Of a DNA stretch of 49,945 nucleotides, positions 10,948-32,500 are shown one piece after another. This stretch comes from Craspedostauros australis (taxonomy: Eukaryota). The notes below the pieces were generated by a model. It saw only the letters and a program-made list of their open reading frames with translations, had not been told where the DNA came from and did not search any database. Location of the stretch: positions 1 through 49,945 of the forward strand of contig JALAGF010005131.1 of the NCBI GenBank assembly GCA_030167865.1. Reading direction: 5' to 3'. Every line of letters starts with the position of its first letter. The stretch's first letter is position 1. The translations under genes and the position numbers were made by a program.

Positions 10948-11701
10948 CGTCTTAACTTGCGTCTTAAGTTGCGTCTTAAGTTGCGTCGTGTTATGACTTG
11001 ACTTAGCTTGAGATTGACCTGACTTTGTTATCAGAATTATGACAGCGGGTGTCGGCAAGCAACGCCCGCGATGAGCTGTTTGCGCTACCAATCCATGGTC
11101 GTCCACAGCGCGTATCCAATGATGACCCACCAAGGGCAACGCGATGAGAAATTTGGGTGCGCATGAAGTAGGTGCGACGCGTTTGCCGCCATCCTCTCGT
11201 GTGTGCCAATTCACACTTTTCTTGGTAAAACGACCAAGTTGAAATGTGAGGGGCGTTATAATGACGTTATCAGACTCGTTTGAGAGGCGCCAAAATGTCA
11301 CGCACAGTTGTGTGCAGGCCGTCAGCAATTTTGGTGGCGGAAGGGCCGAGACACGTGGAGGAGTCAAGATGACACCACACGTCAGCGTCCCAGAAGGATC
11401 CAAACCACACGAACCAGAGGGTGTGATCAAGAGAAGGAGGCAATCAAAGGCAAACACAAAGAGGAGAGAGGACCATGCGACCAAGGCAACAACACACAAC
11501 ACACAACCCAATACTCGAGCACATCAACAACAGACATCGAATTGCCACGCATCTTCATCACACAGTGCACGGTACTCATACTGATACAAGCCAGTACAGA
11601 CACCACCATCGATATCTCAGCAATAGGCAGCTCAGACTACACACTTCCTCGACAGCCAATCCCACGTCAATCGTCCAGCAACCATTGACCATTCTCTCAA
11701 A

Positions 11702-12325
11702 ATGCCGAGTGTTACGAACAAACAACTCATTGATGCTGCCTGGACAGGTGACTTGTCGGTGCTGAAGGAATGGAAGAAGCAGACAACGATGCAGAACGAA
11801 GGAGTTGATATCAACTGCAATACCAACCATGGTGATAATCCCCTTCAATACGCATGCTTCAGTGGCCACCTGGAGTGTGTGAAGTACCTCATCGAATCAT
11901 GCGAGGCGAACATCAACTGGAAAGACGAAAATGGAAACACACCCCTTCATGACGCATGCTTGCGTGGCCACCTGGAGTGTATCGAGTACCTCACCAAATC
12001 AGGTGGAGCGAACATCAACTGCCAAAACAACAATGGTAACACTCCCCTTCATTGGGCATGCCGCCACGGCCACCTGGAGTGTGTGGAGTCCCTCATTAGA
12101 GGACTTTCGCCTTCAGTTCACCCACAACTGCAACAATCGCAACAGCAGTTGAAGCGAAAGAGGCAAGAGAATGAACACAAACACAGTAGCCACAAGAGGA
12201 CCAACATCGCATCGGAGAAGACCGCCTCAGATCTTTCTGAACCGAGAACAGGACAGGCACTATCTTCTTGTGTGGACAGGACGACCAACAACGACCAATC
12301 AAGGCAAACTCCAGAGTCCTCATGA
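11702..12325 (+). CDS. Ankyrin-repeat protein copy A (N-cap, 3 repeats, Gln-rich coil); truncated ankyrin-BTB gene
   Basis: GxTPLHxACxxGHLECVxYL repeats of 34 aa. A 1-bp deletion at ~12208 relative to copies B and C shifts the tail out of the BTB frame. Confidence 0.85.
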   Translation: MPSVTNKQLIDAAWTGDLSVLKEWKKQTTMQNEGVDINCNTNHGDNPLQYACFSGHLECVKYLIESCEANINWKDENGNTPLHDACLRGHLECIEYLTKSGGANINCQNNNGNTPLHWACRHGHLECVESLIRGLSPSVHPQLQQSQQQLKRKRQENEHKHSSHKRTNIASEKTASDLSEPRTGQALSSCVDRTTNNDQSRQTPESS

Positions 12326-12690
12326 TCACCGTCCCATCCATTCAGACATTAATCAGCTCTGGAATCCAACATCACCACACAAATGATGGCACCGAATGTC
12401 AATAGGACTGAGTGAGTGAATCAATGTTGTTCGCTAATATTTATGAGAGATTGTATTGATTAGCGCTGGAGTTGCGGAAAGGATTCCTGATCGTAGCTTG
12501 CCTGTCTCTAGCAGAAAAGTGGGCGCGAGGTGCATAGCGTTCTGGCGATGGACAGGCGAGTCACGGGCGGGACTGGAATCAGCACCGAAGACGGCGTGGC
12601 CCCATGCAAGCAACCATCTCTCTTCCCAACCTTCAACCAAAGCACGTCCGATACGTCCTCCAATGCATCTACACAGGTGAGATGTCCTTC
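12210..12690 (+). pseudogene. Decayed BTB/POZ-like domain of copy A
   Basis: Reconstructed as TIFLCGQDDQQRPIKANSRVLMITVPSIQTLI...ATISLPNLQPKHVRYVLQCIYTGEMSF; broken by frameshifts, a TGA and an LTR insertion. Confidence 0.7.
12397..12584 (-). mobile_element. Solo LTR, 188 bp, 5-bp TSD CCGAA
   Basis: TG...CA ends; CCGAA at 12392-12396 and 12585-12589; absent from paralogous copy C (25511-25530). Strand inferred only from the ...TTGACA end shared with the Copia LTR. Confidence 0.75.
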
Positions 12691-13561
12691 AATGACAGCG
12701 CTCCTGACGACACCAATGGTGATGACGCAAACCAGCATCTCTTCATGCAACGCAACTCTGTTCGATGGTGATGGCGATGGTGACCACTCCAACAGCGCCG
12801 CATCCCTTCACATTGGTACCACCACCAACAACACCACCAACACAAACAATCAGACAAGATGATGAGACATCGACATCCAAGAGGAACTGTGGGAAGGCTC
12901 GCCAGTTGCTCCGTACCCTTGACCCACCCGTCGTACGACTATGAGTATTACTATGGAACCTTCCATGAGTATGATCTACTCTGGGAGTTGCCACAGCAGG
13001 GCGTCCAGCCTGATACTCTGTTCGAACCTTCGCTCGGTCATGACGATCGAAGTTGCTGGAAGAGGACGATGTCAGACCACCGGGTCCGTGTGCTGCCGTG
13101 GGAAGGCACGCCTGCACACATCTGCACCCATGTAAACACATCGTCAGCATCCCATACTCGTAATACCGGCAGAACACAACAGTCTCAAACTCGGCATCGC
13201 GCAGTGCAGCGACAGACTGTGAGGATCGCAACATCCTGCGTGTGAGCATCAAGGTTGCGAAGTTGCTGAAACAAGTTCTGCCAATGACGTACGACGCCGC
13301 ATTTCGCAGCATCGATTGCATCGACCAACCGCAACAACAGGTCCGGCTCGAATGAAGCCGGCGCCACTAAATCCCTTCTTGAATCAACACCCAACTGCAA
13401 CAGACGAAGCTGATGCCAGCACCTATGACAGGGTGGGAACCCAGTGGTGGAATGAAGAAGAACCCGATGTAGTAAGTGGGCCAAAGGTGTCTCGAGGTAT
13501 ATATAATAGTAGTCTACGACCACGTATACAAGTACGAGTGCTCTCCAGAGAGCAGAATCTA

Positions 13562-15118
13562 TCATATTATCCTGCACTGCGAATGAATCGATGAATCACC
13601 CCCTATTTGAAAGATCCAGGTCTTGACGGCGCCCGCAGTCTCCATTGCATTCGATACCTCCTGTGCCTTGTCTGCGGAACACCAAGCAACGCCACATCCA
13701 CCACCACCGGAACCCACGATCTTGAAACCCCACGCTCCCGTATGCAGGGCTGCGGTGCGCATATCCTCAATGCGAGGCGTCGACAACTGCAATCCATCCC
13801 GCAACGCACAATGATGCACGTCCATCAGCTTGGCGAGTTGCCGACCGCTACCAGTTGCGTTGGACATCCACAGTTTCGCGGCTTCCGCTTCCACATCACG
13901 ATTCGTGCGCGTCACCTGCAACAGCGTGCGTTCGGTATCGTCCAGATCGGCATCCTGCGTATCCCAATCACCATTCAGCTTGGTCGCGTACAGTTCCAAC
14001 CGATCGTACTTGCAGCGTTTGAGATGCCGCATCGTGTNNNNNNNNNNNNNNNNNNNNNNNNNNNNNNNNNCGCCATCGACGGGCGGCAACTTCACGACGG
14101 CGTCCGGAGCAATACGCAGACACGTGCCGCGACTGCAGCAGATCGACACATGATCCATCGTGCCGCCCGGTGCGCCGAAGTGCGTGACTTCCGCGCGATG
14201 CGCAAGCCGGGCCAAATCATCGTCGTTGTGGCGGGGTTGTGACGCCAATCGCGACAGCACCAGGATCCATGCCGCGACGAAGGCCGTCGAGCTGCTGCAA
14301 CCCGATTGCAANNNNNNNNNNNNNNNNNNNNNNNNNNNNNNNNNNNNNNNNNNNNNNNNNNCCTGCGTATCCCAATCACCATTCAGCTTGGTCGCGTACA
14401 GTTCCAACCGATCGTACTTGCAGCGTTTGAGATGCCGCATCGTGTCCTTGGGCTGGCCCGAGTCCGCCAGCACCCACACGCCATCGACGGGCGGCAACTT
14501 CACGACGGCGTCCGGAGCAATACGCAGACACGTGCCGCGACTGCAGCAGATCGACACATGATCCATCGTGCCGCCCGGTGCGCCGAAGTGCGTGACTTCC
14601 GCGCGATGCGCAAGCCGGGCCAAATCATCGTCNNNGTGGCGGGGTTGTGACGCCAATCGCGACAGCACCAGGATCCATGCCGCGACGAAGGCCGTCGAGC
14701 TGCTGCAACCCGATTGCAACGGGATGTCGGTTGTGGAAACGCATCTGGCACCGCCGTTGCGGAACTCCCATCCGTCCTGGAAGGCCTCCTGCAATGCGGA
14801 TAACGCAAAATCCATGGCCTCGCCGTCATCATCATCATCACCGTCGTTGCTTTCACCGTCGTTGCTTTCACCGTCTTTGCCATTGTTCCTGCATGGTGAC
14901 ACCTGTGATGAGATCGCGTGCAGATCGTAAGTGAAGTGCTGATCCAGCTGCGGCACGGTCAGCTCGATGCATGCAGAATCTGGGGTGGGCGTCACCTCGA
15001 TCCGGCATGTCAGCGGAATGGCGCAGGCGATGACCGGCAGATCGAGGTAGTCCTGATGCTCGCCAAACAAGCACACCCTGCCAGGTGCGACGGCAGTGAA
15101 CGGCGTGTTCAAAGTCAT
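13562..15118 (-). CDS. galK: Galactokinase-like GHMP kinase (~382 aa once the artefactual duplication is removed)
   Basis: Motifs APGRVCLFGEHQDY, PLQSGCSSSTA, GTMD and GFKIVGSGGGGC. Confidence 0.85.
   Translation of the reverse strand: MTLNTPFTAVAPGRVCLFGEHQDYLDLPVIACAIPLTCRIEVTPTPDSACIELTVPQLDQHFTYDLHAISSQVSPCRNNGKDGESNDGESNDGDDDDDGEAMDFALSALQEAFQDGWEFRNGGARCVSTTDIPLQSGCSSSTAFVAAWILVLSRLASQPRHXDDDLARLAHRAEVTHFGAPGGTMDHVSICCSRGTCLRIAPDAVVKLPPVDGVWVLADSGQPKDTMRHLKRCKYDRLELYATKLNGDWDTQXXXXXXXXXXXXXXXXXLQSGCSSSTAFVAAWILVLSRLASQPRHNDDDLARLAHRAEVTHFGAPGGTMDHVSICCSRGTCLRIAPDAVVKLPPVDGXXXXXXXXXXXXTMRHLKRCKYDRLELYATKLNGDWDTQDADLDDTERTLLQVTRTNRDVEAEAAKLWMSNATGSGRQLAKLMDVHHCALRDGLQLSTPRIEDMRTAALHTGAWGFKIVGSGGGGCGVAWCSADKAQEVSNAMETAGAVKTWIFQIGGDSSIHSQCRII
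13954..14719. repeat. 358-bp direct duplication across a 50-N gap (likely scaffolding artefact)
   Basis: 13954-14311 equals 14362-14719 apart from Ns; gap at 14312-14361. Confidence 0.85.
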
Positions 15119-15754
15119 TGCTGCGGAGCGATGGGATGCGGCAGAAGGTGCTCGGTGGCTTCAGCTCATACCACACGAGTGCCTATCGCTTCTGTCATCG
15201 TCATTGCCCTCCGCCCTCCTTGGGATAGTCCCATTGTCGGTTGTATTCTGACGAGCTGTATTGTGTTGTGTTGTGCATCATGAGTGTGTGCACAAGATTT
15301 TGTCGTGTTTCGATCCATTTTCGTCACTTTCGACCGTTTCACTCCAAATTGTTGTTGCTTTGTATTGGAGCGAAACCAGTCACGAGGACTCGAATGAGTC
15401 ACGATCAGCAGACAACAACAACACCCACAGAAACAGACACAGAAGACTCAACGCAAAGAAAGAGAAACCAAAACACAGAAGACACAATCCATCAAACAAC
15501 ACATTGGATACGAACTCATACCCAACTACCGCCACCGTTTCAATACAGACATCGAATTGCCACTCGTATTCATCACACAGTGCATGGTACTCATATAATA
15601 CCAATACAAGCCATTGAAGACACCATCATCGATATCTCTGCCAGAGGTATAATAGCTCAGACCACACACTTCCTCAACAGCCAATCCAACGCCAATCGTC
15701 CAACGTCAATTGTTCAACGTCGATCATCCAGCAACCATCAACCATCCTCTCAAA

Positions 15755-16744
15755 ATGGAGAATGTTACGGACGACCAACTCCTTGATGCTGCCCGTGCAG
15801 GTGACTTGTCGGTGTTGAAGGAATGGAAGAAGCAGAACGATACTCAGAACAAAGGAGTTGATGTCAACAAGGGTAAAGACTGGCTTGGTCAGATTCCCCT
15901 TCATTTGGCATGCCGCAAAGGCCACCTGGAGTGTGTGAAGTACCTCATCGAATCATGTGGGGCAAACATCAACTGCAAAGCCAAGCATGGTTGGACTCTG
16001 CTTCATCAGGCATGCATGCGTGGCCAGCTGGAGTGTGCGGAGTACCTCATCGAATCATGTGGGGCAAACATCAACTGCAAAGACAACAATGGTTCCACTC
16101 CCCTTCATGTGGCATGCATGCGTGGCCAGCTGGAGTGTATCGGGTACCTCATCAAATCATGTGGGGCAAACATCAACTGCAAAAACAACCATGGTTTCAC
16201 TCCCCTTCATGTGGCATGCATCAACGGCCACCTGGAGTGTGTGAAGTACCTCATCGAATCATGTGGGGCCAATGCCAACTGCAAAATCAGCGCTGGTTAC
16301 ACTCCCCTTCATGGGGCATGCTACTTTGACAAGCTGGAGTGTGTGAAGTACCTCATCGAATCATGTGAGGCGAACATCAACTGCAAAACCAGCGCTGGTT
16401 ACACTCCCCTCCATAAGGCATGCATGCGTGGCCAGCTGAAGTGTGCGGAGTACCTCATCGAATCATGTGGGGCGAACATCAACTGCCAAAACAACCATGG
16501 TTACACTCCCCTTCATGTGGCATGCCACAACAACCAGCTGGACTGTATCGAGTCCCTCATTAGAGGACTTTCACCTTCAGCTCACCCACAACTGCAACAA
16601 CTGCAGCAACACTTACAACAAAATGAACAAGCAAATGAACAACCACAAGAACAGTTGAGACAGCAGTTGAAGCGGAAGAAGGAAGAGAATGAACACAAAC
16701 ACAGCAGCCACAAGAGGACCAACATCAGCATTGGAGAAGACTAG
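15755..16744 (+). CDS. Ankyrin-repeat protein copy B (N-cap, 7 repeats, Gln-rich coil), 329 aa; truncated ankyrin-BTB gene
   Basis: ATG at 15755 in the same context as A and C; seven 102-bp repeats. The frame beyond the TAG reads LKSFQTENRTDTIFLCGQGN*QQPIKANAKVLMITVPSIQTLMD. Confidence 0.9.
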   Translation: MENVTDDQLLDAARAGDLSVLKEWKKQNDTQNKGVDVNKGKDWLGQIPLHLACRKGHLECVKYLIESCGANINCKAKHGWTLLHQACMRGQLECAEYLIESCGANINCKDNNGSTPLHVACMRGQLECIGYLIKSCGANINCKNNHGFTPLHVACINGHLECVKYLIESCGANANCKISAGYTPLHGACYFDKLECVKYLIESCEANINCKTSAGYTPLHKACMRGQLKCAEYLIESCGANINCQNNHGYTPLHVACHNNQLDCIESLIRGLSPSAHPQLQQLQQHLQQNEQANEQPQEQLRQQLKRKKEENEHKHSSHKRTNISIGED

Positions 16745-16886
16745 CTCAAATCCTTCCAAACGGAGAACAGGACAGACACCATCTTCTTGTGTGGACAGGG
16801 CAACTAACAGCAACCAATCAAGGCAAATGCCAAAGTCCTGATGATCACCGTCCCATCCATTCAGACACTGATGGACAAAGGAATCC

Positions 16887-17075
16887 TGTGAATAAGATGA
16901 GTAGTGTGTAAATCAATGTTGTTCGCTAATATTATGAGCTATTGCATTGATGAGCTGAGGAGTTGCGGTCTTAGCTCCTGCTAGTGTCTTGCTCTGCTCT
17001 AGGAGGAAAGTGGGCACAAGGTGTGCACTTTGCCTACGTAGGTCAGTTGGGTCATGTGCAGGACTGGAATCAATA
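16887..17075 (-). mobile_element. LTR-like element (189 bp) homologous to 12397-12584; no TSD, and the copy B tail is missing beyond it
   Basis: Shares AATCAATGTTGTTCGCTAATA, GGAGTTGCGG, AAAGTGGGC and GGACTGGAATCA blocks; roughly 70% identical by eye. Confidence 0.7.
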
Positions 17076-17981
17076 TGGAGATTTCTGGTTGTCCAACACA
17101 TTTTGCATCCACAGCTTACATGGTAGTATCGTACGTAGTCATAGTTATCTCGCTCCTCCCTCAGGGGGATCGTCTCAAGCATGTCCAGCGATGATTGATT
17201 GAACGAATACTCACCATTGCAGGCTAATTCATCCATGTTGGCAGCATTGTTGCAGTGAGCTATTGTAGTTGTAAACAATGGTGTGCACCGTTTGGAGCTG
17301 CTCGAGGGTGACTTCATGACTCCCATGAGGATAGTGAAGACGGAGTTGACCAAGGAAGAGAGGGGGGTGCCTCCGGAGGCTGTGGTGCCATCGGGACCGA
17401 CGAAGGTGATCATTCCGTGAAGCACCAGAGTCCACCAAGCTGACGCTTGTTGCTCTCTTGCATCGTTCTTGGCTGATCATGCTGCTGCTGTTGGTGTTGC
17501 TCTTGTTTGTGATGTGGGTGCTGTGCATGATATTCATTGATTTGCTGAGTTGCTTGCATCTGAGTTGTTGGTGATGCTGATGCAGATGCTGATTTGTGAG
17601 ATGAGGACTGGTGGGAACGAAGAGACTTGAGGATCTCACATGATATGGATGCCACAAGATGGATGGGATTCATCGCCAATGCTGAGAGTAGCATCCATAT
17701 ACACATGAACACCCTGGCACGATCGTTTGGATGTTGTGCAGGCGTTCGCCACGAGAAATCAATCTTGTTCGGCATCTTCAGGAACGTCGCAGGTTCTCAA
17801 CTACAAAAGCACCTCCTGTTGTGGAGGGGCCATTTTGTGTTGTTGTTGGAAGTATCCGTGGATGTTGGTGGTCTCGTCTATCGATGGCTCATGGGACAAC
17901 CACCATGGCAATATGAGTGATGGAATGCTGGAGTATCAGCATATGGAAATGGGGATCATCCTATCCCTCCATCATCAGGAG

Positions 17982-18151
17982 TGACAATTCTCACAGAATT
18001 CCTTACTTCTTACTTCTTTACTAATCGTACTAGTCAAATACTGGTCGGGGGCTGTCTTCGGACAGCACTCACAAATAAACAACCAGAGCTCCGACCAGGG
18101 CACGAAACAACGGGCCAATACGTCTTCTGTAGTTACTTGCACTGTTTGACA
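17982..18151 (+). repeat. 5' LTR, 170 bp
   Basis: Direct repeat of 23707-23890 with 5 substitutions and two fewer CTTACTT units. Confidence 0.95.
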
Positions 18152-18181
18152 GATTAAGAGTCGTGCTTACCAACACTGAGC
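18152..18181 (+). promoter_or_regulatory. Primer-binding site complementary to the 5' half of tRNA-Lys(CUU)
   Basis: GATTAAGAGTC abuts the LTR and is the reverse complement of the anticodon arm GACTCTTAATC; further blocks match the D-arm. Confidence 0.75.
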
Positions 18182-18227
18182 AACACCCAACACCACACCA
18201 CCTTTTACCATCTTACGAGTTACCATC

Positions 18228-21200
18228 ATGGACCGACCAACCAACATCAACACCTTCAACAAGATCATCCAAGAGCTGGTTCAGCTCGATGACGAAGAGA
18301 TGGCGTTCATCGGCAAGAAACTCGGGAGAATCGATCGTGTCATCCGCAATTCGGACACCACCATCGTGGCGGCTTTGGTGCTCTTGCCAATGCTGTCATC
18401 AATCAACATCACCAACATCCTGCGCATCTTCGCATACGCGAGATCCAATACCATCACCGCGCGAACCGATTGGGCAGCAATCAACTTGTTCAACAAAGTG
18501 AACAGCTACGTGCCACCAGAAGTCAGCACGCCAGTCGCGAACGCAGCTGCTCAAGTACGGTCGGAGATGGCGATCAGAGAGGAAGCCGCAGCAGCGGATG
18601 CCACTGACACAACGGGTCGCGAGATCACAATCAGCTCACCGAGCCGCGTGACACGCACCGCCTGATCACCACGAACTCCAAGGACTCCATCAGGATGGAA
18701 GTTCAACAAGATCAGCATGCCAGAAGCACCCGAATTCACCGGCATGAACTGCGACTGGTATGACTGGAAGATCACGTTCAAGCGCCAGCTGGTCACATCC
18801 AGGTATGCCGCGTACCTCGATGTCGACAAGCCATCGCACTTCAGTGTGGAGATCGACGCGCAGCTATACACTGTCCTGCACACCAAGACAGAGAAGGGAT
18901 GCGCAGCATTCATAGTGGAAGCATATGAACCCAACGGCCATGATGCATACCAGGCACTCATACGCATGTATGAATCCGTCGACAACAAAGCTGAGGCCAT
19001 CGTCGAGGAAGAACAGAAGATTGCCGAGCTCCGTTACGACGGATCCGAGCCATTCCCAGTATTCGTCATTGCTTTCTCCAAATGCATCCGCGTCATGGAG
19101 CAAAACGGGAAGCAGATGACCGACCAGCAGAAGATCGCGAAGTTCTTTTGCAGTATCACAGACGATCGCTTCACAAGCGAGGTGTCCAGGTTCCGTAACA
19201 CGGAACACTCCTTCAGCGCAATCCGTGAGGCGTTCATGCAACATGACGCGCTCCTCACGAAGTCGGAAGGACACTACTCTCCCAAGCGCAACCGTCGCTA
19301 CCAGCAGAAGGACACCAAGAACGACCGCAAGAGGCCACGCGAATCCTCCAAGTGGGATCGCAAGGGCACCGCATCGTTTCGGTTGCCGGACTCCGTCTTC
19401 CGCCGCATGCCGGTGAGCACTCAAGTGCTCCTTGTCAAAACGTCTTGCCACTTCCGCACTACCGGGAAACCAATCGATGAGGAAACCCTCAAGCGCAACA
19501 AACCGACAGAGTACGCGCGCAACCTCGAGTTGCCAATGACCCAGCACGGGCCCAAGCGGCCCCGCACGGGCGAACACAAGACTGGACAACCCGGCACCCA
19601 AGGACCATGGAACGCCGGTTCTTGACAATCAAAGACGGGCACAACTCGCCGTCAGTCGGAGATTGTCATCCACCTCAAACCCCGCGACTGTAGGGGGGCG
19701 AGCGTGACGACCGCAGCGGGAATGCCCGGACGTGCACGTCCGGAGGCGCCACAAGAGTCCCGTCCGTGCACAACCCACCCAACAGTGGAGCATTGCATCT
19801 GAAGGGCGAGAGTAACGAATAGCCAAGGCTTTATCATCCTAGACTCAGGGGCGGACGGAGACATCGTTCATGCGTCGGGCTGGGAGGTGACCCACACACA
19901 CCAACAAGAGTTTCGTGCCTGAGGGGCGACGATGGACTCACCAATCGAGACATTCCAGATGGTCGACGCGGTGGCAGCATACGAGCCCCCATCAGGCGGC
20001 GTGATCCTCATACAAGCGAACTACGTGGCTCTCGACAAGCATCCACAGCAGACGGAATCACTGTTTAACACACATCATATGCACGCGTCCGGACTGAACG
20101 TCTACGATCGCCTACTTGAACATCAGGGACAGCAGCGGGTCTCATCGGGTGATATCAGCTTACCACTGGACAACCATGACGGCAACACGCTCCGAATTCC
20201 CATCAGAAAGCCAACAGCCCACGAGATGGCGACGGCACAGCATATCATCATATGCGACAGACACCAGCGTCTACGACGCAATGCGGGTCGGATCGATTTC
20301 ACGCGAATCTTCCGACACCTTCCACCACACGTGGTGGAGAAAACCATGGCGGCATCCACTCAGCTGGCGGATACTCCGATCGAGGCAGAGTCAAGGCTTA
20401 TCCCGCAGCAGTATCGAGCGCAGCGAGCAGGAGTGCTGCAACCCAACAGAATCGACGGCAGAGTTGACACGGACACGTTCTTCTCCACCGTCCAGTCCAT
20501 CCGGCACTACAAGTGTTTCCAGCTCTTCTCGCACAACCAATCGAAATTCATCTGGGCGAAGCCACTGAGCCGCGAGGCCATGGCGCCAGGGGCGCTCACG
20601 GACTTCATCGTCCGCGTCGGCGCTCCGGATCTACTCGTGTCAGATAATTCGCAGGTGCAGTCAGGAAAGGCATGGAAAGCGGTGACGGCGAGATATCTCA
20701 TCAAGCATCAATTCACCGTGCCAATGAAACAGAACCAGAACCACGCAGAACGGGCAATCGGCGATGTCAAGCGGCATGCATACCAGCTACTGTGGGCGGC
20801 CTTGGCGCCACTCTCATTCTGGTGCTATGCTGTGCAACACGCCATCGACACATGGAACTACACGGCGAAGGCGAGCCTCCAATGGCGTACACCAATCGAG
20901 ATTCTTCGCGGCCATACTCCCGACATCTCGATGTTTCGCTTCACGTTCTTCCAACCCGTATGGTTCTTCGAACCCATGACCAAATTTCCCAACCATCCAT
21001 TCAAGCCAGGGTACTTCCTTGGCATCGCATGGAATCACGGCGATCCATTCACCTACCACATCTGGTCGCCACGAGGCGACGACGTCACGAAGGGCACCGC
21101 GCTTGTGCGAAACATCGTCAAGCCGCATGTCGTCGAAGACGCCGTTCCTCCACGCATCACCGACGCGGAGGTCGACCGCATCGCTCGACTCGATATCATC

Positions 21201-23709
21201 CACACCACTACGCGCGGCGAGTCCGGCGAACGCGCCCAAACCAAGACATTGCCGGCGGAACTCGCTCGACAGGTCCGCGAGGCCATCGACGCGATTGCTG
21301 TGCAATCAGGGGCGGCAGCGGGTCCACCGGAGCCGGAGACGCAGGAGGTCAGGGGCGTATCCGAGACTAATACGCCAGCAGGCACGGCTGACCGATGGTT
21401 CGGTCAACCCAACATAATTCCCAACGACGGCGACAGGCCAGAACAGAATGCACACGGCGTCATCTCAGATGACAACGGCGACGCATCCACGGGTAACATC
21501 TCTGAGGAGACCGATGACTCCGAAGTCACGGCAATGCCAGATCCTCCGGAGCACCGCTCTCAGGGGCGTGAGTCCTCTCTCATCGAGAGAGAGAGCATGA
21601 CGAGCTGTTCCGAAATCAGGTCGAAAACGAGAAATCTGACGACTTGGCAGTCCAATCCATCCTCAGCCACGCATTCAGAGACGGACATCTACACTTCAAT
21701 GTGCAAGGGTCCAACACTGAAACGCAATGGTTCCGCTACGACGTGATCCGAGCTGACCATCCCGAAATGGTAGCACGATACATCATCGACAACGAACCAC
21801 GACGCAACGATCGACACAATCGACAATCGCAAGTCCTACTCAAGTGGGCAAAACATGCACTGCGAGTCATCAGGCCAGAATCCGACGAATCGAGCAGACT
21901 CAAGCCTTCGCAATGGATGAGAATGACAACATCATCATCGTCAGACGAATCCGTCCAGGCAAGAAGAAGCCGAAACGAGACTACTTCGCCACTGTATATC
22001 AATACGGTGTCGAGGTCCCACGCAACATGAAACATGCATTGCAACTGGATGAAGCCAATGGGGATCACCAATGGAGAGATGCAGCGAAGAAAGAGATCGA
22101 CGCATTGATCAAACTCGACTGCTTCACGTTCCACCCATCAACGTACCAACCACCACCAGACTACCAGAGCACGAAACTCCGACTCATATTCGCGGTCAAG
22201 CAAGATCTGCGACGTAAGGGGCGCTTGGTAGCAGGCGGGCATCTCATCGAGCTGGCGGACAACATCCGAGTCTACTCNTCAACCGTCAAGTCGACAAGCG
22301 TCNGCATNCTNGATGCAATNGCAGANGCAAACAACCTGCANCAGCTATGTGGCGACGTCGGCAANGCATTNGTCAATGCNTACACCAATGAGAAGATCTA
22401 CGCGACAGCAGGAAAGGCATTCGACGACAAAGAAGGACAAGTCATTGTGCTCAAGAAAGCACTGTACGGTCTTTGGTCGAGCGCACAATGATTCCATGCA
22501 CACTTCGCTAACACTCTCTCATCAATGGGATTCACGCCATCTCGGCATGATCAAGATGTATGGATCCAGCGCAGAGATGACTCTGGCTACAACTACATCT
22601 GCACCCATGTGGACGACTTCAAGATAGTCGCCAAAGACCCAGATCAGTACATGAAAGCGATCCAACAAGTCTACACAGTCAAAGACATTGGACCACCAAA
22701 GTACTATTTCGGCAACGATTATTCCAGGAACGCAAAAGGAAAATGGAGCGTCGGATGCGACAAATACATTTCCAATGCTCTGGACAAGATCGAACGGCTC
22801 CATGGGGAACTGCATGATCAACATGTACCCATGAAGAGCAAGGATCACCCGGAAACGGATGATACACCACTACTAACACCTGACAAGCAACAACAGTTCC
22901 AGCAGCTCATTGGCATGCTGAACTGGGTTGTACAGCTTGGACGTTTCGACGTCGCATTTGCAACCTCTTCTCTCTCGCGTTTCACGTCGACACCACGAAA
23001 AGGGCATCTCACACAAGCACTTAAGATATGGGGATACCTCAAGAACAAATCAATGCTGAGAACCATGATTGACTCAAAGCCCATCGCATTCGAGAACTTC
23101 AATCCAGAATCGCCCAACCCGGAGATGGTTGCACAGATGAAGGAAGAGTACCCCGAAGCGGCCGAGGACATTGACGATCAGGCACCGGCAGCGATATATC
23201 CTGAGATCCAGATGTGCGCATTCGTCGATGCGGACCACGCACATGATCTGGTCACGCGGAGATCGAACACCGGCATCATCATATTCCTGGGGCGCACCCC
23301 AGTGCACTTCTCCAGCAAACGCCAGACATCAGTCGCAACATCAACGTACGGAGCAGAATTCAATGCAATGCGCTCGGCTACCGAGGAAATCATTGCGCTC
23401 CGATACGCACTCCGATACGCACTCCGATTGCTGGGAGTCACAGTCAAAGCGCCAACGATCACGTTTGGCGACAATGCTGCAGTGATATCAAACACGACCA
23501 TTGCAGACAGCTTGCTACAAAAGAAGCATGTGGCAATATCATTCCACAGAGTCCGCGAAGCGGTGGGAGCTGGAATCCTTGTTCCAGTATATGTCCCATC
23601 GAAGCAGAACTTTGCGGATATGCTCACAAAGGCACTGGCAAAGCCAGAACTCACATCATTTGTCACAACTCTGTTCTATGCAGGTCTACCTCGAGATCAG
23701 GGGGTGTGA
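18228..23709 (+). pseudogene. gag-pol polyprotein with 5 in-frame TGA stops and 2 frameshifts
   Basis: Gag PEFTG...W; protease IILDSGA; integrase DTDTFF/VSDNS/NHAER; RT LKKALYGL and HVDDF; RNase H FVDADHA, STYGAE, FGDN, ADMLTK. Stops at 18663, 19623, 19800, 19920, 22489; frameshifts at ~21590 (GA repeat) and ~21872. Confidence 0.9.
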
Positions 23710-23890
23710 CAATTCTCACAGAATTCCTTACTTCTTACTTCTTACTTCTTACTTCTTTACTGATCGTACTAGTCAAATACTGGTTGGGGGCTGTCTTCAG
23801 ACAGCACTCACAAATAAACAACAAGAGCTCCGACCAGGGCACGCAACAACGGGCCAATACGTCTTCTGTAGTTACTTGCACTGTTTGACA
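23707..23890 (+). repeat. 3' LTR, 184 bp, preceded by purine tract AGGGGG
   Basis: Matches the 5' LTR and is followed by TSD AGGAG. Confidence 0.95.
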
Positions 23891-24668
23891 AGGAGCGCCG
23901 ATGACTTGCTGGTCAAACTTGTTGGGAACATGATCGTTCAATCCACCGCCTTCATGCATACTCGTAGTAGTACAACACATCGTGCATTTCCCATGTGCGG
24001 TTCTCAGGCAACCATGTTGCCGATTGGACTCCTTGGGGGATACGCGTACATCGTGACGTGCGATGGTTGCAATTGAGATTGTGATCATCTTGGTGTTCTC
24101 CCCATCGCATCATCGCTGTTGGCGTCATCATCACTTTCGTGGTTGTTTCGAGTTGACGATCAGAGATCTCATTTGAACGCCTTTCTGACGTGTCCTTCTC
24201 ATGAAAGAAGCTAATAAAGTACTTCATTGACACACAGAATTCGTGGAATTGGGAACATCTCTGCACGCGCAAAAGTGGTGAAGCGAGAATGGACGATTCC
24301 CATTTGTGGTGTTCTCGTGTTCGCAACAGCGATGTTGTGGGGTGTGGGGTGTTCTGTTCCTTCTTCTCGTTGTTGTGTGCGCCAGTTCGTAGTCAGCAAA
24401 AGGAAGGATCCGCACTCTCCGGACAGCGGTGGTGCCCTCTCCCAAACCAGGGTGGGATCAAGAAGTACACAAACAGAGAAACGAGGAGAGGAACGGGAGA
24501 ACATTGAAACGAGGCAACCGCACACACCGCTCAACCCCACACTCCAACACATCAACAACAGACATGTCATGGGTAGCTCGAACAGCACACTTCCTCGACA
24601 GTCAATCCAACGCCAATCGTTCAACGTCCAACGTCAATCGTCCAGCAACCATCGACCATCCTCTCAAA

Positions 24669-25346
24669 ATGGAGAATGTTATGAACCAACAACTCAGGAT
24701 TGCTGCCACGAACGGTGATTTGTCGGTGTTGAAGGAATGGAAGAAGCAGAACAAGACGCAGAAGGAAGGAGTTGATGTCAACAAGGTTACAGGCGAGGGA
24801 CGTATCACTCCCCTTCATTGTGCATGCATCAACGGCCACCTGGAGTGTGTGAAGTACCTCATCGAATCATGTGGGGCGAACATCAACTGCAAAACCAACT
24901 ATGGTTACACTCCCCTTCATTGGGCATGCGACAACGGCCACCTGGAGTGTGTGAAGTACCTCATCGAATCATGTGAGGCGAACATCAACTGCAAAACCAG
25001 TGCTGATTACACTCCCCTTCATTTCGCATGCATGCGTGGCCAGCTGAAGTGTGCGGAGTACCTCATCGAATCATGTGGGGCGAACATCAACTGCCAAAAC
25101 AACCGAGGTGAAACTCCCCTTCATCAGGCATGCGCCAACGGCCACTTGGAGTGTATGGAGTCCCTCATCAGAGGACTTTCACCTTCAGCTCACCCACAAC
25201 TGCAACAACTGCAGCAACACTTACAACAAAACGAACAAGCAAATGAACAACCACAAGAACAGTTGAGACAGCAGTTGAAGCGGAAGAAGAAAGAGAATGA
25301 ACACAAACACGGTAGCCACAAGAGGACCAACATCAGCATTGGATAA
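24669..25346 (+). CDS. Ankyrin-repeat protein copy C (N-cap, 4 repeats, Gln-rich coil), 225 aa; truncated ankyrin-BTB gene
   Basis: ATG at 24669; four 102-bp repeats; the terminal TAA lies where copy B has GAA. Confidence 0.9.
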   Translation: MENVMNQQLRIAATNGDLSVLKEWKKQNKTQKEGVDVNKVTGEGRITPLHCACINGHLECVKYLIESCGANINCKTNYGYTPLHWACDNGHLECVKYLIESCEANINCKTSADYTPLHFACMRGQLKCAEYLIESCGANINCQNNRGETPLHQACANGHLECMESLIRGLSPSAHPQLQQLQQHLQQNEQANEQPQEQLRQQLKRKKKENEHKHGSHKRTNISIG

Positions 25347-25630
25347 GACCAACTCAAATCCTTCTAAACCAAGAACAGGACAGACACCATCTTCTTGTGT
25401 GGACAGGGCAACTAACAGCAACCAATCAAGACAAACGCCGAAGTCCTCATGATCACCGTCCCATCCATTCAGACACTGATCGACAAAGCAATCCGACATC
25501 ACCACGCAAATGATGGCGCTGAAGACGGCACGGCCCCCCATGCAAGTAACTGTCCCTCTTCTCAACCTTCAACCAAAACACGTCCGATACATCCTCCAAT
25601 GCATCTACACAGGCAAGATATCCTTCAACA
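25347..25630 (+). pseudogene. Decayed BTB/POZ-like domain of copy C
   Basis: TDTIFLCG..PIKTNAEVLMITVPSIQTLID...VTVPLLNLQPKHVRYILQCIYTGKISF, with TAA at 25365 and 25413 and a +1 slip in poly-C 25534-25539. Confidence 0.7.
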
Positions 25631-26547
25631 ACAACACTCATGACGACACCGATGATGATGACGCAAACCAGCATCTCTTCATACGACACAACTCTGTTCG
25701 ATGATGGTGATGGCGATGGCAATGGTGACCATTCCAACAGCACCACATCCCTTCACATTGATACCATCAACGCAAACACCAACGCAAACACCAACGCAAA
25801 CACCAACACCAACAATCAGACAAGATGATGAGGCATCAACATCCAAGAGGAACTGTGGGAAGGCTCGCCAGTTTCTCCGCACCTTCACCCACCTGCCGTA
25901 CGACTATGAGTATGGAAGCTTCCATGAGTATGATCTACTCTGGGAGTTGCCACAGCAAAGCGGGCAGCCTGATACTCTGTCCGAACTTTTGTGCGGGCAC
26001 GAGGTCATGACGATCGAAGTTGCTGGAAGAGGACGATGTCAGACCACCGGGTCCGTGTGCTGCCGTGGGAAGGCATGCCTGCACACACCTGCACCCATGT
26101 ACACACATTGTCAGCATCCCATACTCGGAACACCGGCAGAACACAACAGTCTCAAACTCGACATCGCGCAGTGGAGCGACAGACATTGAGGATCGCAACA
26201 TCCTGTGTGTGAGCATCAAGGTTGCGAAGTTGCTGAAACAAGTTCTGCCAATGACGTACGACGCCGCATTTCGCAGCATCTATTGCATCGACCAACCGCA
26301 ACAACAGGTCCGGCGCGAATGAAGCTGGCGCCACTAAATCCCTTCTTGCATCAACACCCAACTGCCACAGACGAAGCTGATGCCAGCACCTATGACAGGG
26401 TGGGAATCCAGTGGTTGAATGAAGAAGAACCCGATGTAGTAATAATAATAACTCAATGATTACATTAGGAATGTGCCCTGTAAGCTTTACCCTCGCCTCC
26501 GCCGGCCCCGTAGGACCGGGTTTCGAGCGAGCCGTCGAACACCTGAA

Positions 26548-29500
26548 TCATGCTAGGTCCAGCCAGCGACTCATCAGCCGCCGCTCATTCTGCATGGTGC
26601 GCGCCCGTCGCCGGGCGGCCACCCTGGAATGCACCTCCCGCATGTCATGTATCCACTGCCGCATCTGCGACTCCGTTCCGTATTCCATCTGATAGCCCTC
26701 CCGCAGAAGGACCATCTCTGACTCGTTCATGTCCTGGCTGGCGCTTGCCGCGATCCGCCGCACTTGCTTCCGCAGCTCCGCCAATGACGGGTGCTGCTCG
26801 CCGTCGTGCACCTTCTCGTTGCGCGCCACCCAAACGCCCCAGGGAACTTTCCAAACCCACCGGACCACTTCCTTCGTCCATGCTGCCGCGTCCGGGAAGA
26901 CGCACTCATGATGCTCCATCCACTGAGACTGCTGTTTCCGCCAATCCTTGTGTAGGAACCCCAGCAACAAGGGATACCACCCAATGTCGCCCTGGGTGCT
27001 CTGCGGCTTCTGGCGCCGCCGCCAGCGGGCCATTCCCACCCTCATTCCTGACACCAGCCTTGGGGCTGACCCAATAGTCACCATGCGATCGATAAGTTCC
27101 TCGGTCGCAAGGTTCCACGCTGTCTCGTGCTCCTTACAGCGCAGGACGTGGTGTGTCGTCTCCTTGGCGCCACAGAACTGGCAGGTGGAGGACTCTTGCT
27201 GGCCCATCTGCTGCATCTTCCGCCCGACGCCCACAAAGCCAGAGGACCACTTGGTAACGAATTTCGACACGGCCTGGTTCTTCCTTGCTGCCCTAGCGCC
27301 TTGGTATACTTCCCAATCGACTTGTTTGGTTGCACCCTTCGTCCATTCGAACTTCTTCGTCCAGTATCGAAGAGAGTCAGACGCCTGCAGCGTCTTGTAA
27401 AGCTCACTTTGACCCACGTGGGAGTAGTGTTGATCGCTGACCGTTAGGGTCCATCGACTTGTTGTTGACGACCACTGCCGGGCTCGTCGTCGAGAGACTG
27501 TCGCTCCCCAAAACGCCTTGGCGCGTTTGTCGCATTCCACATTGAGCTTCTCCAACGTTGTAAGGTCTTTACCCGTGTCGTCTTGGTGTCCGCGGACCCA
27601 CACCCATTTGAGGGTTGCCCGTATGCGTTGCCTCAACCGGCGTATTTCGACGAGGATGTCCCAGTCGCGTTGGCCTGGACTGATGGAGTCGGATTGGGCT
27701 TGACGGAGGGCCTGAAGACCGTCGAGTGCCAGCGTCACTGTGCACACTTCGTTCAGCTCCGGAATCATAGCAAGCATTTCCAATGAGGCCCAGATCCCGG
27801 CGAGTTCGCTGCGGTAAGAGCTGTGGACCGACGCTGGGCCTGGCACAAAGGTATTACACGCCACGTGTTGTTGGGAACGAAGGTCGAACATTATGGAGCA
27901 AGAGGTGCCCCTTGCATCCTTGAACGACCCGTCACTCACCACCACCAGCTTGTGGTCCCTCGCCGCCGCCAGCATCTGGCCAAAATCGGCATCCCCTCCG
28001 AGATCTTCCACCGGATCGTAGCTCGATGGCTGTGCATCCGGCTCACGATGCAGACCAATCCTGCGGTCCCAAGTGATCCCTCGTTCGGTGACGACGACTG
28101 ACACCCGGTGAACTAGCTCCGGGATGCCCTGGACGGATCCTTGTAGCCGGTACATGGCCTGCCTTGTCCGGCGTCTGGTCACCGGCACGAACACCCGTAC
28201 AGGGTCCGAGTAGGAGTCGTAGATCTCTTCAGTCAAGGCCGCCTTCCACCACTGCCACGATCCATCGTCCCCGTACCACTTTCCAAGAGGGCTCTGGAGC
28301 ATGCGTCCTCGATAGCACAAAGACTTGCACCACCTCCGCCACTCCTTCCACCATCCACTGGGCAGCCGATCCGGCCGCCGCGCCCACAGCTGTCCTCGGA
28401 CTGGAACGTCTTGACCTTCCATGGCCCCGACCACCAGCGCAGATCCTGCAGCAGTAACGATGTCGGACATTCGTGCAATCCCGAGCTGTCGTCGGCACAT
28501 GTTCAGGTGATAAAGCTTGGCGCCTTTCAGGCCCATACGCAACCACACTTGGACGAGGAACTCGTCCCCATCACGCTGTAAAGCTATCGATTCCGTGGTC
28601 TCAATGACTCCAATCCCTGTGTCCTGGAGTTGTTGCCACAGACCTTTAACCCAGCAGGGCGTCACGCACTGGTGCAGCTGGTCGAACGGTTGTGAGAACA
28701 GAGACCCTCCGATACCCAGCTCTGCCTTGATCGCCTGTATTGAGCACACGAGCATGCACCCTGTAGACGTGTCGCCATGCACCTCGTCAAAAAGCAATTG
28801 CAGTTGCTTGATCACTTGCCGATGGACAGGATTTGGAACTCCCAATCCCCCGAGGGATGTCGAGATGTACATGTGAGTATATGTCAAGATGTACGTGTAT
28901 ATGTGCATCGTTCACCCGCTATTCTCTCATACGCACTTGGACGGTANNNNNNNNNNNNNNNNNATAGTATGCTGTGATTCGTCAGAATTACAGGGGAAAT
29001 GGAACACACGAAAAGGGGCAAGATTTCTGGAGGAAATTTGCAAATTACAATTTCTGAGAGAATTGGAAGATCGTCCGTCCATCCACCAATGGTACCAAGA
29101 GAATCTCGAGGTACTTCCCAACTAACCCTCAGATGACGATATCATCTGACAGACTGCTGCATCACCAATGGAACGTGACATCTGGAGAGCAGAAGAACGC
29201 CTACTGACGTCGACAGGATGTCAACATGTCACCACGTCGACATCTGTCTCCAAGTCAGAGCAGGAGGCGAAGATCAGATGACCCATGAAGATCATGGATA
29301 CTGAAGGTGAACTTCAAATGGTAAGTACTCATGGAGTAGGAACCAGTACTGAACAAACGGAGTGTCGAATGCAGAGTACGCATCGAACACGGAGTATCGT
29401 GTAGCATGAGCACACGATGTTGAGAGAGAAAGAGAGAGAGAGAATACAGAGAGGAGCGAGAGAGGATCTCGCGTACCGACTCATAGTCGGAGACTGAATC

Positions 29501-32500
29501 TACAAAACAGATTGAAGCGCCNNNNNNNNNNNNNNNNNNNNNGGCGTACACCAAGAGGATTGGAGTAGCCAAGTAATGAAATAGCAAACAGACGACTATC
29601 AACCAACACCATCTTCCACGATCGTAGGCTTCCGTGAGCGGAACTTTCCAACAGAGGGAGACTGGAGCGTACACCAGATCCCGTGGGAACGTTCTTGCGC
29701 ATCCCATCTTTGGGAGGGCCGCCAAGAGTGCTGGGGCCATGATGCGCCGCCACTGATGGCGCGTGAGTTGAGAAACCCCCATCACGTACTCAATGGACTT
29801 GATGAAGCGCAACGTAAGGGCCGACTTGGCGTCTTCCGGAGACAGCTGAGCGTGACGCATCCGTCCCGCGAAGTCCTCCGACTTCTTCCGCAGCACCTGG
29901 ACCTGTTGGTCATCGACGCTGTCAAATGTCAGGAACACGCCGAGGGTGAACAAGGGTTCAGCAATTGTCTTGCGAGGGATCGCGCTGTTGGCGCCGTCAC
30001 CGTCGACAATGACAATTTCCTCTTGCTCATCCCCGTCGCCCCATGTCCACCGTCCTTCCTCGAACCGTGGCCGCATGGACCACCACGCCGACTTCGAGGG
30101 GACAATAGCACCGCCAGTAACCCGCAATAGGCCGCTCCAGTCTTGCACCATCCGGGCGAAGCTCGCGGGGGTAGTGCTTTCCCGAATGCCTAGGGTCACA
30201 AGGTCGGTGTCGTCCACAAAGGCCGATCCCAGCAAGTCAAAAGCACCAACCCCTTCAGGGTATTCGATGGTCTGCTTGTGCCCCCGAAGCTCCATGGCTT
30301 TGAACATGACCGAGCTGATCACCGCCCATATGGCGGGTCCCGCCCCGTTGCCTTGTCCTATGCCATGCATACTGCAGTCCGGTCCACTTTGGTAGGACCT
30401 ACTGGATACTCCAAAGGCCGTACTGATGCGGTGACTTGTGTCTCGTAGCGTTTGGAACATGCACCTCGTCGCCGCTGGATTGGCACCTGCCGCCATCATC
30501 GCGGTGGCCGCGAAGTTGGGCACTATACGGTCGTAGCATGACTTGGCGTCGTTCGAGCAGAACCATATGGGCACTTTCTTTTGCTTGCCGATGTCGATCG
30601 TCAGTCGCTTGTTCAAGGCTGCGCTTATGGCCGATCGTCGCTTGCGGCTCCCGAATTGGAAGTCCGAGAGCCACCCTTGTGCTTCCGCTGTGGCCATCAT
30701 TTGCTTCCCCAGACGCTTATTATTCAAGTTGAACTGCAAGTCCATCAACTGTATGGTCCTCATTTTTTCAATGTTGAAAACTTGAGCCTTCTTCAGGATC
30801 TCCACATCTGTGATGCGCTGCCACTCTGTTGGGGAGTAGCCCGTCTGATATGGTATTTCCTGCATGGCCATGTCCACTTCAGAGAGGGTGGTGTCGTATG
30901 ATGCCGCCTTGTAGTGACCGAAATGGGGTCCGCTTGGCTTGGAGTTAGTTAGTTCCGTCTGCTTGCGCCACGCCTTGACATGCTCTTTCACCGTCAGCTC
31001 GTCCGTTTGGTACGGCACTGACTCCAAGGCCTGCATGAGACAGTTCCAGAGCGGGTGGTCAAATTGCGAACGGGCATCCCCTCGCAGAAGCTCCGGGGCC
31101 GTCGCCGGGTTCCAGATCTTGTCCATCAATTGCCGGCCTCGTCCTGTCATACACGGGGTGTCCTTGGCTTGCGAGAACCTCCGCTTGTTCTCAATGACGC
31201 ACGCCTCCACAATTTCGTCTTGCTCTGTGCACTCGTGTATCGCTCCGTCTACGTCTGTAAATAGAACTTTCGTAGTCATCGACTTGCCTCCACCGAATAC
31301 GGTTCGGAGACGTCCGGCCTGTTCTCGTTGGCGCTCCCGGTTCATGGGAGTGTTGATGGCTGTCTCATACTCCTGTTCGCGGCTGTCGTGCCGTTGTCGG
31401 GCGAGGTCAACCAGGTGGTTTTGTTGGGCCTGCTTGTGCTCCTTCTTCATTCGGTAATAGGCTTTGTACGCCTCCACTTGGGCTTGTAAGGCCGCTTCCA
31501 GGGACTCAGCCCCCTCGCTACCGGCCTGTAGCCGAAGTCGAGCTCTGAGAGACAAGCTTGTCTTCACTCCTCGCCAGTGTTTCACCTCAATGGACCAGTG
31601 CCGCACTTGGTGTCGAGCGGCCTGCATCTCGGGTGACCAGGCAACTTCTCCCATGGTCAACTTCCGACTCCGCTTTTCAGCATAGCGTCTGATTTGGAAG
31701 ATCTGGGTCATTAGTCCATCGAAGGCCCGTTGTTGGGAGGGGCTTAGTTGCCACCCTTGTGCCTTGGCTTTGGTGAACAGATGCATAGCCCGCTGGTGCA
31801 CGTTGTGTTTCCCGTATTCTTGAAGAACCATCTCGTTGTACTTGCGTACCACGTTAGGGTTGCTGAGCACCAACCGTCTTGGCGAAGGAGACTTCACTCG
31901 TTGGACCCCTATCCCCAGTAACTGGGAAAAGCTGAGGTCCACCCAAATCGCCCTGTGGTCTGAGGGAATGGCCTTGCCAAACCCTGAATAACCTGCGCGT
32001 ACGATCTCGACACCTTCCGACACGTAAATCGCGTCGATGGGCGTATTGGTTTGGTTCCGCTGTTGCGTGGCTCTTCTGGCGCCGTCACCGATGCGTTCTA
32101 AGACTGCGTTCTTCAATCCAACGGCCATAAGGGCCTGAGCTGTGCCCCCTTCATCCGTGTCTTCATTTAGATCGACTCCGAGAACTATCGAGTCACCTGC
32201 CACCGTCCATGCTCTCACTTGATGTTGGAGGTCCTTGATCCACGCTTCATGTGGGTCCTTGGTTCTGCCTTGAGCTTGTAGTGCGCGTGCTTGTTGGTTC
32301 CACACTGTGGTGTCCCCTGAGGTGGACTTGCAGGGCCTGTAGGCCGCAATTATTCTCACCGTCTTGCTCCGCTTGCCTTCCACTCTGGACCATGACCATC
32401 TCCCCAGCCCCGTAGTGTCCACACCGTAGTTGAATGTTCTTGCGGCCAGTTGTTCGGTCAGAACAATGCCCGTGCCTCCGTAGAGACATGGTTCTCGGCC

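Follow-up and report, generated by a model that had tools for sequence, protein, structure and literature searches.

What kind of gene carries ankyrin repeats that are nearly identical in nucleotide sequence, silent sites included, and yet differ from one another at a handful of codons? Three such genes, A, B and C, lie close together in a stretch of 49,945 nucleotides from the diatom Craspedostauros australis (assembly GCA_030167865.1, contig JALAGF010005131.1, positions 1 to 49,945, forward strand), which we refer to as the window. The original prediction read them as a cluster with 3, 7 and 4 repeats of a 102-bp unit, and proposed a diversifying family of recognition receptors that evolves by repeat shuffling and positive selection. 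We find that positive selection has acted at the amino-acid level on codons 3 and 5 of the hairpin and codons 10 and 13 of the first helix, and more weakly on codons 1 and 16, and we find that the three genes belong to a lineage-specific diatom family of at least 185 copies. Its full-length members combine ankyrin repeats with a coiled coil and the domains BTB and BACK, and an offshoot of about 100 copies, to which A, B and C belong, has an open ankyrin open reading frame (ORF) followed by a decayed BTB. The genome-wide extent of the family and the broken BTB remnant behind each gene had been overlooked.

The predicted cluster is real. A, B and C are each a single ORF with repeat units of 102 bp (34 residues), a shared N-terminal cap (N-cap) and a Gln-rich, basic tail, and matches to Pfam PF00023/PF12796 far above the cut-off identify all three as ankyrin repeat proteins. 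The BTB remnants behind them are all broken by stops, frameshifts or truncation, such that none of the three genes has an intact in-frame BTB; the remnant behind A is shifted in frame, contains stops and an insertion of about 185 bp (12397-12581), and has its BACK part replaced. Gene C differs from the 3' part of B at 65 positions over 703 nt, and flanks related to the 5' flank of A precede B (from about 15545) and C. The predicted variability was also recovered on recheck, with the same residues following LH/LQ (Y,D,W,L,Q,V,G,K,C,F) and the same pairs following AC (FS,LR,RH,RK,MR,IN,YF,HN,DN,AN).

The ankyrin consensus provides the frame in which the repeat units are numbered. The unit reads G4-x5-T6-P7-L8-H9-x10-A11-C12-x13-x14-G15, with ankyrin positions as in the accessible part of PMC1261162, and it is on this numbering that the predicted placement of the selected codons on the binding face rests. 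In 13 window units (the first unit of A being left out) codons 9, 11, 12, 19 and 23 do not vary at any of their three bases, which bears out the near-invariant scaffold originally described, and codons 3, 5, 10, 13 and 14 differ by 1.5–1.9 nt per pair. Across 454 distinct internal units the first- and second-base diversities at these five codons are 0.64 and 0.53, compared with 0.12 and 0.07 in the framework. The free third base stays ancestral when scored at four-fold positions over 6–8 codon boxes, being C in 166/175 cases at codon 5 and in 91/106 at codon 13, G in 143/164 at codon 10 and T in 30/33 at codon 3, and the third-base diversity of the five codons is 0.38, compared with 0.56–0.64 in neutral simulations with matched first- and second-base diversity. 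Pairwise ratios of nonsynonymous to synonymous differences (pN/pS) at the five codons are saturated, and are 1.6–2.2 with averaged paths and 1.0–1.3 with the most synonymous paths. Among 105 independent close unit pairs the variable codons show 8 silent and 106 replacement single changes in addition to 54 multi-base changes, whereas the framework shows 69 silent and 128 replacement changes (Fisher p 6e-9).

A site model supports four of these five codons. We built a grid-based model similar to fixed effects likelihood (FEL), with fixed kappa and a tree from framework codons, and applied it to 223 distinct units (230 sampled of 464). Codons 3, 5, 10 and 13 have ratios of nonsynonymous to synonymous substitution rates (dN/dS) of 25–40, with likelihood ratio test (LRT) values of 67–206; codons 1 and 16 have ratios of 4 and 10, and codons 2 and 14 vary, yet with dN/dS of about 1. 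When the full set of 442 distinct units is used with a tree from all sites, the ratios at codons 3, 5, 10 and 13 are 10–25, and 190 units of the full-length class give the same positive sites as the BTB-less class. Neutral simulations with 12-fold hypermutation at these codons do not mimic the signal, the LRT for dN/dS>1 being at most 9 in four runs, two of them with free recombination. The selection originally proposed for the binding-face codons is in this way supported.

The size of the family was estimated by an N-cap pattern search of the genome, which gave 185 matches, and that of the window sub-type by a 24-nt pattern at the junction of array and tail, which gave 103 matches in the 65.9-Mb genome; the reversed control was 0 for both patterns, although the assembly is fragmented (6734 contigs) and some counted copies may be alleles. 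The catalogue, drawn from 98 loci and the window, contains 104 copies of the junction sub-type, of which 89 are intact, two have a stop, one is frameshifted, one has an N gap and 11 are cut by the end of a contig or locus. Intact sub-type copies have 2–20 repeats, and the family as a whole ranges from 1 to about 47. The 100 listed junctions are spread over 85 contigs, with 28 on contigs carrying two or three copies. Homology between flanks fades stepwise and differs between subsets of loci, which is expected from segmental or tandem duplication rather than from a transposon cassette. A transposon-carried cassette is not supported, as common sharp ends on both sides were not seen (terminal repeats and target duplications on the cassette were not looked for), and the retroelement pieces of the window are present at merely 5–7 of 169 loci scanned. 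A search with the tail, among four candidates within a length window, returned one further relative (P0100), one unrelated ankyrin and nothing else. Among named homologues, the closest carry the label Craspedostauros australis. At one locus (L073, G000:C5812) two family copies lie head to tail in one open frame, as a tandem fusion or a mis-assembly.

The parent architecture can be recognized because BTB-BACK-like sequence follows the tail in most sub-type copies, and in one of them (L081) the frame reads through the BTB. The BTB domain of L081 scores 29.4 bits against Pfam PF00651 (cut-off 20.5), and full-length paralogues have an intact in-frame BTB. A genome search with a BTB-BACK query scored 139 of 396 candidates, in which it made 144 matches, and 55 fetched loci, picked for long open frames, yielded 47 non-duplicate genes laid out as N-cap, 1–47 ankyrin repeats, capping repeat, coiled coil, BTB and BACK (n=47); the window sub-type is without this C-terminal capping repeat. 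The order of domains looks like that of a SPOP-like Cullin-3 adaptor, the best solved relative of the family BTB-BACK is SPOP (E-value 0.008), and a Cullin-3-like gene is present in the genome. In a search of 1.84 billion cluster representatives 95 match, and among the 18 top hits scanned eight are ankyrin-BTB proteins and six have a MATH domain. The next database relatives of the family BTB are MATH-BTB proteins, and a transcriptome collection is the source of two older relatives of the ankyrin-BTB kind (P0003 and P0005). These relationships suggest that the family may have arisen from a MATH-BTB adaptor in which MATH was swapped for ankyrin repeats.

One full-length member (L139, G000:C3870) has about 47–49 ankyrin repeats in a single open frame of 2469 codons. 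The coiled-coil linker of full-length members (L131-L132, L136-L137 and L102-L127) consists of tandem Gln/Glu/Lys repeats that are variable and differ greatly in length, and it is possible that this linker is an adjustable spacer between binder and BTB. At a further set of loci (L117, L122, L125 and L126; P0001, P0096 and P0097) BTB-BACK is kept as a separate open frame of 240–300 codons behind a broken linker.

In the offshoot the BTB has decayed and the ankyrin frame has mostly stayed open. Among the 88 sub-type copies with enough sequence the ankyrin frame reaches the BTB core in one. The 83 remnants contain 43 stops, of which 17 are distinct, and 43 net frameshifts, of which about 15 are, the frameshifts being counted as net-frame clusters in place of a noisier pairwise count that made 44 false calls in open genes; the lesion lies inside the BTB domain in 59 of the 83, and the others are cut off in the linker. 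No BTB stops or frameshifts occur in 45 full-length genes, although these were themselves selected as open frames. In a tree of BTB sequences 62 of 64 offshoot copies fall into one branch (support 100/98) together with three intact genes, but there are five label changes and the bootstrap did not converge, and a single origin of the BTB-less class is not established. The intact BTB of L081 clusters with the full-length genes, and P0100 has a BTB-less-type junction yet an intact BTB. An intron that rescues the BTB was considered and rejected: the first stops occupy 41 distinct offsets between 39 and 888 nt, and the lesions are spread through the remnant.

Upstream of the decay, the ankyrin ORF is open in 89 of 92 copies that are complete and gap-free, and the ATG is kept in 96 of 96 sub-type copies. 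The seven N-cap length classes in these 96 copies are all multiples of 3, and the BTB is scattered over the three frames relative to the ankyrin ORF (20/16/36). First stops begin 39 nt past the anchor at the end of the array and hardly ever before it. One of 465 units bears a stop, where the rates of silent change in these units predict 17 (if transitions alone are counted) to 36, a depletion with P of 0.02 to 1e-4 if a third of the events are independent; these expectations replace an inflated pooled estimate of 117. TAG at codon 10 was not seen, with 19.6 expected from base frequencies. We rely on the within-unit stop test rather than on a comparison of lesions per kb (3 seen, 45 expected), which overstates the difference since the arrays are homogenised. 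Contigs from one sequencing run (X1), whose nature as RNA is a guess, number 924 at 85% likeness and extend over gene B, the junction of the sub-type and the first part of the BTB remnant; among 15 of 20 joints there is no GT-AG joint in the tail, and 18214-22200 is uncovered. Because the kind of run was guessed, we count it neither for nor against expression.

The repeats themselves turn over rapidly, in agreement with the shuffling originally proposed, although mis-assembly may contribute. Of 465 units, 335 have their closest counterpart in a different gene, and of the 102 nt of a unit 16.5 differ within genes and 18.8 between genes. Variable sites show low linkage (r2 of 0.06 at 1–5 bp, 0.014 at 6–15 bp and no higher beyond), with a contribution from recurrent mutation. 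In 21 sister pairs, defined by their remnants (5.7% divergent), 63 of 84 variable residues in the last repeat are different, and the repeat number is equal in one of 17 complete pairs. Distances at the 5' and 3' ends are almost uncorrelated (rho 0.05, 74 genes). Exact stretches common to arrays of different genes have a median of 70 nt, are 55–85 nt in the window genes, and reach 395 nt in some copies at contig ends.

The explanation that we favor, and regard as probable, is that the family is an intracellular binder repertoire under arms-race selection, with full-length members as Cullin-3 adaptors, BTB-less members as free binders and fast-changing foreign proteins as the driver. Unequal crossing-over and gene conversion between 102-bp units would homogenise the scaffold and reshuffle the binding faces, with point mutation and selection supplying new residues. 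Full-length members would attach to Cullin-3 and direct the proteins they bind to ubiquitination, and BTB-less members would be translated as free binders that sequester a target or block it; most likely the driver would be a fast-changing set of proteins from a virus, parasite or transposon. The recognition-receptor family first proposed is supported in part, and the description is amended to BTB-less derivatives of an ankyrin-BTB-BACK family resembling Cullin-3 ubiquitin-ligase adaptors.

Several observations weigh against this explanation. On the adaptor side, BACK in the full-length form has a Pfam E-value of 0.002–0.003, below the cut-off, although it aligns to the C-terminal helices of SPOP (E-value 0.008), and the acidic Cullin-3-binding motif known from SPOP is not evident in the family consensus (GIQxQ). 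The dN/dS of the BTB is 0.78–0.82 in broken and 0.64 in intact copies, a modest separation of the classes. The scaffold is under weak missense constraint, with framework dN/dS of about 0.6 in both classes, and rare variants at core positions of the BTB-less class lend no support to scaffold constraint: they comprise 22 replacement and 4 silent changes, and since the dead remnant is similar (242 and 56) many BTB-less copies may be decaying. Four lesions were found in ankyrin parts, the fourth in L082, and selection may partly predate the loss of BTB. Framework divergence of the last repeat is 6.9% in sister pairs and 7.6% in random pairs, so new mutation is indistinguishable from wholesale replacement, and with a fragmented assembly and long exact stretches some mosaics may be mis-joins and some copies alleles, although mis-joins cannot produce the codon-position signal. 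Simulations with recombination, by shuffled columns, gave two or three false positive sites per run, outside the hypermutated codons, and the weaker signals at codons 21, 25, 31 and 34 are therefore not trusted.

What else could the BTB-less copies be? They could be stored cassettes that feed repeat variants into the full-length ankyrin-BTB genes by gene conversion, with frames kept open as bad donors are purged or overwritten, in the manner of chicken pseudo-V genes or trypanosome variant surface glycoprotein donors. Exchange between the offshoot and the full-length class is evident: among 201 units of the full-length class, the closest unit from a different gene is BTB-less in 83 cases, of the same class in 84 and tied in 34, and six cross-class pairs differ by 4 nt or fewer. 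The three intact genes nested among BTB-less remnants, the grouping of the L081 BTB and the composition of P0100 are also consistent with donation. However, the BTB-less pool is over twice as large in the sample, which inflates the number of cross-class neighbours, 395 of 464 BTB-less units have their nearest neighbour within their own class, and a pure donor has no need of the ATG, N-cap frame and 5' flank that these copies keep; we consider the reservoir unlikely, although with a real chance of being correct. A smaller chance goes to the view that the offshoot consists of young pseudogenes, recently amplified adaptors that are dead or dying, which inherited their selection signal from full-length genes and whose arrays are kept fresh by concerted evolution. 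Loss of BTB in nearly all offshoot copies, the weak framework constraint and the missing capping repeat fit this view, but it is difficult to reconcile with the depletion of stops, the absence of TAG at codon 10, the concentration of first stops beyond the array and N-cap indels that are in frame without exception.

Two other interpretations concern what the variable faces bind and how they arise. The targets could be endogenous (allorecognition or mating factors, or selfish drivers), or BTB-less proteins could be decoys shielding substrates from their full-length relatives. The variable residue spectrum is the same in both classes, and fungal NOD-like receptors (NLRs) with highly conserved repeats function in allorecognition, as far as the available portions of the sources describe (PMC13449251, PMC4986451). 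A decoy needs matched faces, however, and there are no more than the six close cross-class pairs, and translations and Pfam scans showed no signal peptide, membrane span or NLR ATPase domain; we regard a self/non-self or regulatory role as improbable. Least credible, and in our view very improbable, is targeted mutagenesis that makes the variable codons without selection, whether by adenine mutation as in diversity-generating retroelements (DGRs) or by local hypermutation. AAC, AAT or AAG could be the source of many variable codons, but the third bases of these codons are spared, whereas simulated local hypermutation scrambles them, and the silent adenines of the repeat unit are nearly fixed (GCA at codon 11 in 450/477 units, TCA at codon 26 in 468/477, and no GAG at codon 25), on which grounds the DGR-like mechanism was rejected. 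The reverse transcriptase near the window genes is part of a long interspersed nuclear element (LINE) with a target duplication.

The binder repertoire that we favor can be compared with several known systems. Thomas, in 2006, reportedly provided the source study behind a proposal on the MATH-BTB and F-box adaptors of nematodes and plants. These adaptors are proposed to degrade foreign proteins, and in the accessible part of the source they share with the diatom family a large birth-and-death family, positive selection in the substrate-binding part and a SPOP-like BTB-BACK (PMC4334554). Unlike MATH-BTB adaptors, the diatom family has a shufflable tandem ankyrin array in place of MATH as its substrate-binding part, its BTB is under weak purifying selection, and about 100 copies have dropped the BTB and kept the binder open. 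Fungal NLRs with ankyrin, WD40 or tetratricopeptide repeats (TPR) of high internal conservation have near-identical repeats, variable repeat number and exchange within and between genes, and the Podospora protein Pa_3_8560 has five positively selected positions on the concave ankyrin face, according to the parts of the sources available (PMC4986451, PMC13449251). The diatom family likewise joins near-identical repeats to a few selected binding-face codons and inter-gene exchange, but it is not an NLR, with no NACHT or NB-ARC in Pfam scans of the window genes or their relatives and no death effector domain; its repeats lie N-terminal to BTB-BACK or stand alone, and it has far more copies of one scaffold. 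The fungal NLR ankyrins and the nematode and plant MATH-BTB adaptors each show half of the combination seen in the diatom.

Candidate immune receptors of Ectocarpus, of the ROCO-leucine-rich repeat (LRR) and NB-ARC-TPR types, also come from a stramenopile alga and have high turnover, diversifying selection on repeats and shuffling, but the available text describes one exon per repeat (PMC3341825), whereas the diatom arrays are one uninterrupted ORF with a different repeat type and no GTPase or ATPase. The BTB-LRR and F-box expansions of Parachlamydiaceae resemble the family as expanded BTB and repeat proteins subject to birth and death, but are secreted bacterial effectors with N-terminal BTB and LRR, for which the portion of the report consulted gives purifying rather than positive selection (PMC4209131). 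Libraries of designed ankyrin repeat proteins (DARPins), randomised at positions 2, 3, 5, 13, 14 and 33 according to the accessible text of PMC1261162, share with the diatom units a fixed framework and variable positions 3, 5 and 13 as well as 2 and 14. The predicted match to DARPins is partial: 3, 5 and 13 are strongly selected, 2 and 14 vary but evolve at dN/dS near 1, and 10 is among the most strongly selected but is not a DARPin position; the diatom unit is also Cys-rich, 34 residues long and natural rather than engineered. Since variability at such positions is general among ankyrins, to judge from the same partial source (PMC1261162), it is the near-identical scaffold with such dN/dS that sets the family apart. 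Literature searches, with most subscription papers and supplements outside their scope, returned no account of a diatom ankyrin-BTB family or its combination of features.

Table 1. Positions of the family genes, their BTB remnants and neighbouring features in the window
Feature	Position	Strand	Basis
5' flank of A, common to the family; putative promoter/5' untranslated region	11391..11701	+	sequence comparison
Gene A: N-cap, 3 ankyrin units, Gln-rich/basic tail; 207 residues	11702..12325	+	ORF, Pfam
Broken BTB remnant behind A, partly overlapping the tail of A	12250..12714 (ends approximate)	+	sequence comparison
Gene B: N-cap, 7 ankyrin units, tail; 329 residues	15755..16744	+	ORF, Pfam
N-terminal piece of BTB remnant behind B, truncated; in frame but after stops	16760..16886 (start approximate)	+	
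Gene C: N-cap, 4 ankyrin units, tail; 225 residues	24669..25346	+	ORF, Pfam
BTB remnant behind C, broken by stops and a frameshift; BACK part replaced	25368..25650 (ends approximate)	+	
Copia-like long terminal repeat (LTR) retroelement upstream of C (context; label presumed)	17982..23890	+	AGGAG target duplication (5 bp)
Galactokinase-like GHMP kinase	13565..15121	-	
Repeat of unassigned kind	17076..17975		
LINE, 9.4 kb	26441..35887	-	endonuclease and reverse transcriptase Pfam matches; 15-bp target duplication
MutS/MSH6-like gene (presumed)	41045..46539	-	translation, no domain scan

The surroundings of the three genes are summarized in Table 1. We take the retroelement upstream of C to be of the Copia type from its motifs, a Pfam scan having given no match; its pol frames are split, with scattered N, and its LTR also adjoins seven other family loci. 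The repeat of unassigned kind recurs upstream of seven other family loci. The LINE sits in the 3' flank of C, and its insertion site is empty behind gene A at about 13459-13501. The kinase gene lies between A and B, and similar sequence flanks three other loci (L032, L048 and L064); within it 13954-14311 recurs at 14362-14719 around N gaps, probably as an assembly duplication, and a near-perfect duplication of the same artefact type spans an N gap at 648-1056 and 1107-1515.

A broader reading, which we offer tentatively as a possibility, is that of a natural DARPin-type repertoire in a unicellular alga, in which one scaffold, recombined among about 200 loci and selected at four codons per repeat, would provide heads for a Cullin-3 ligase, together with an offshoot of about 100 copies acting as free neutralisers or conversion donors. 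This would amount to a germline, combinatorial form of intracellular immunity directed at proteins of viruses or parasites, which might diversify within clonal lineages.

How diatoms recognize intracellular invaders is largely an open question, and the family offers concrete candidates for such recognition, for which the variable positions are named and an output, either ubiquitination or blocking, is predicted. It joins in one gene family two strategies known separately, selected ubiquitin-ligase adaptors and shuffled near-identical repeats. Natural selection has here randomised ankyrin positions 3, 5, 10 and 13, one of which the classic DARPin library leaves fixed, and the 405 distinct five-residue faces among 477 units constitute a natural binder library.

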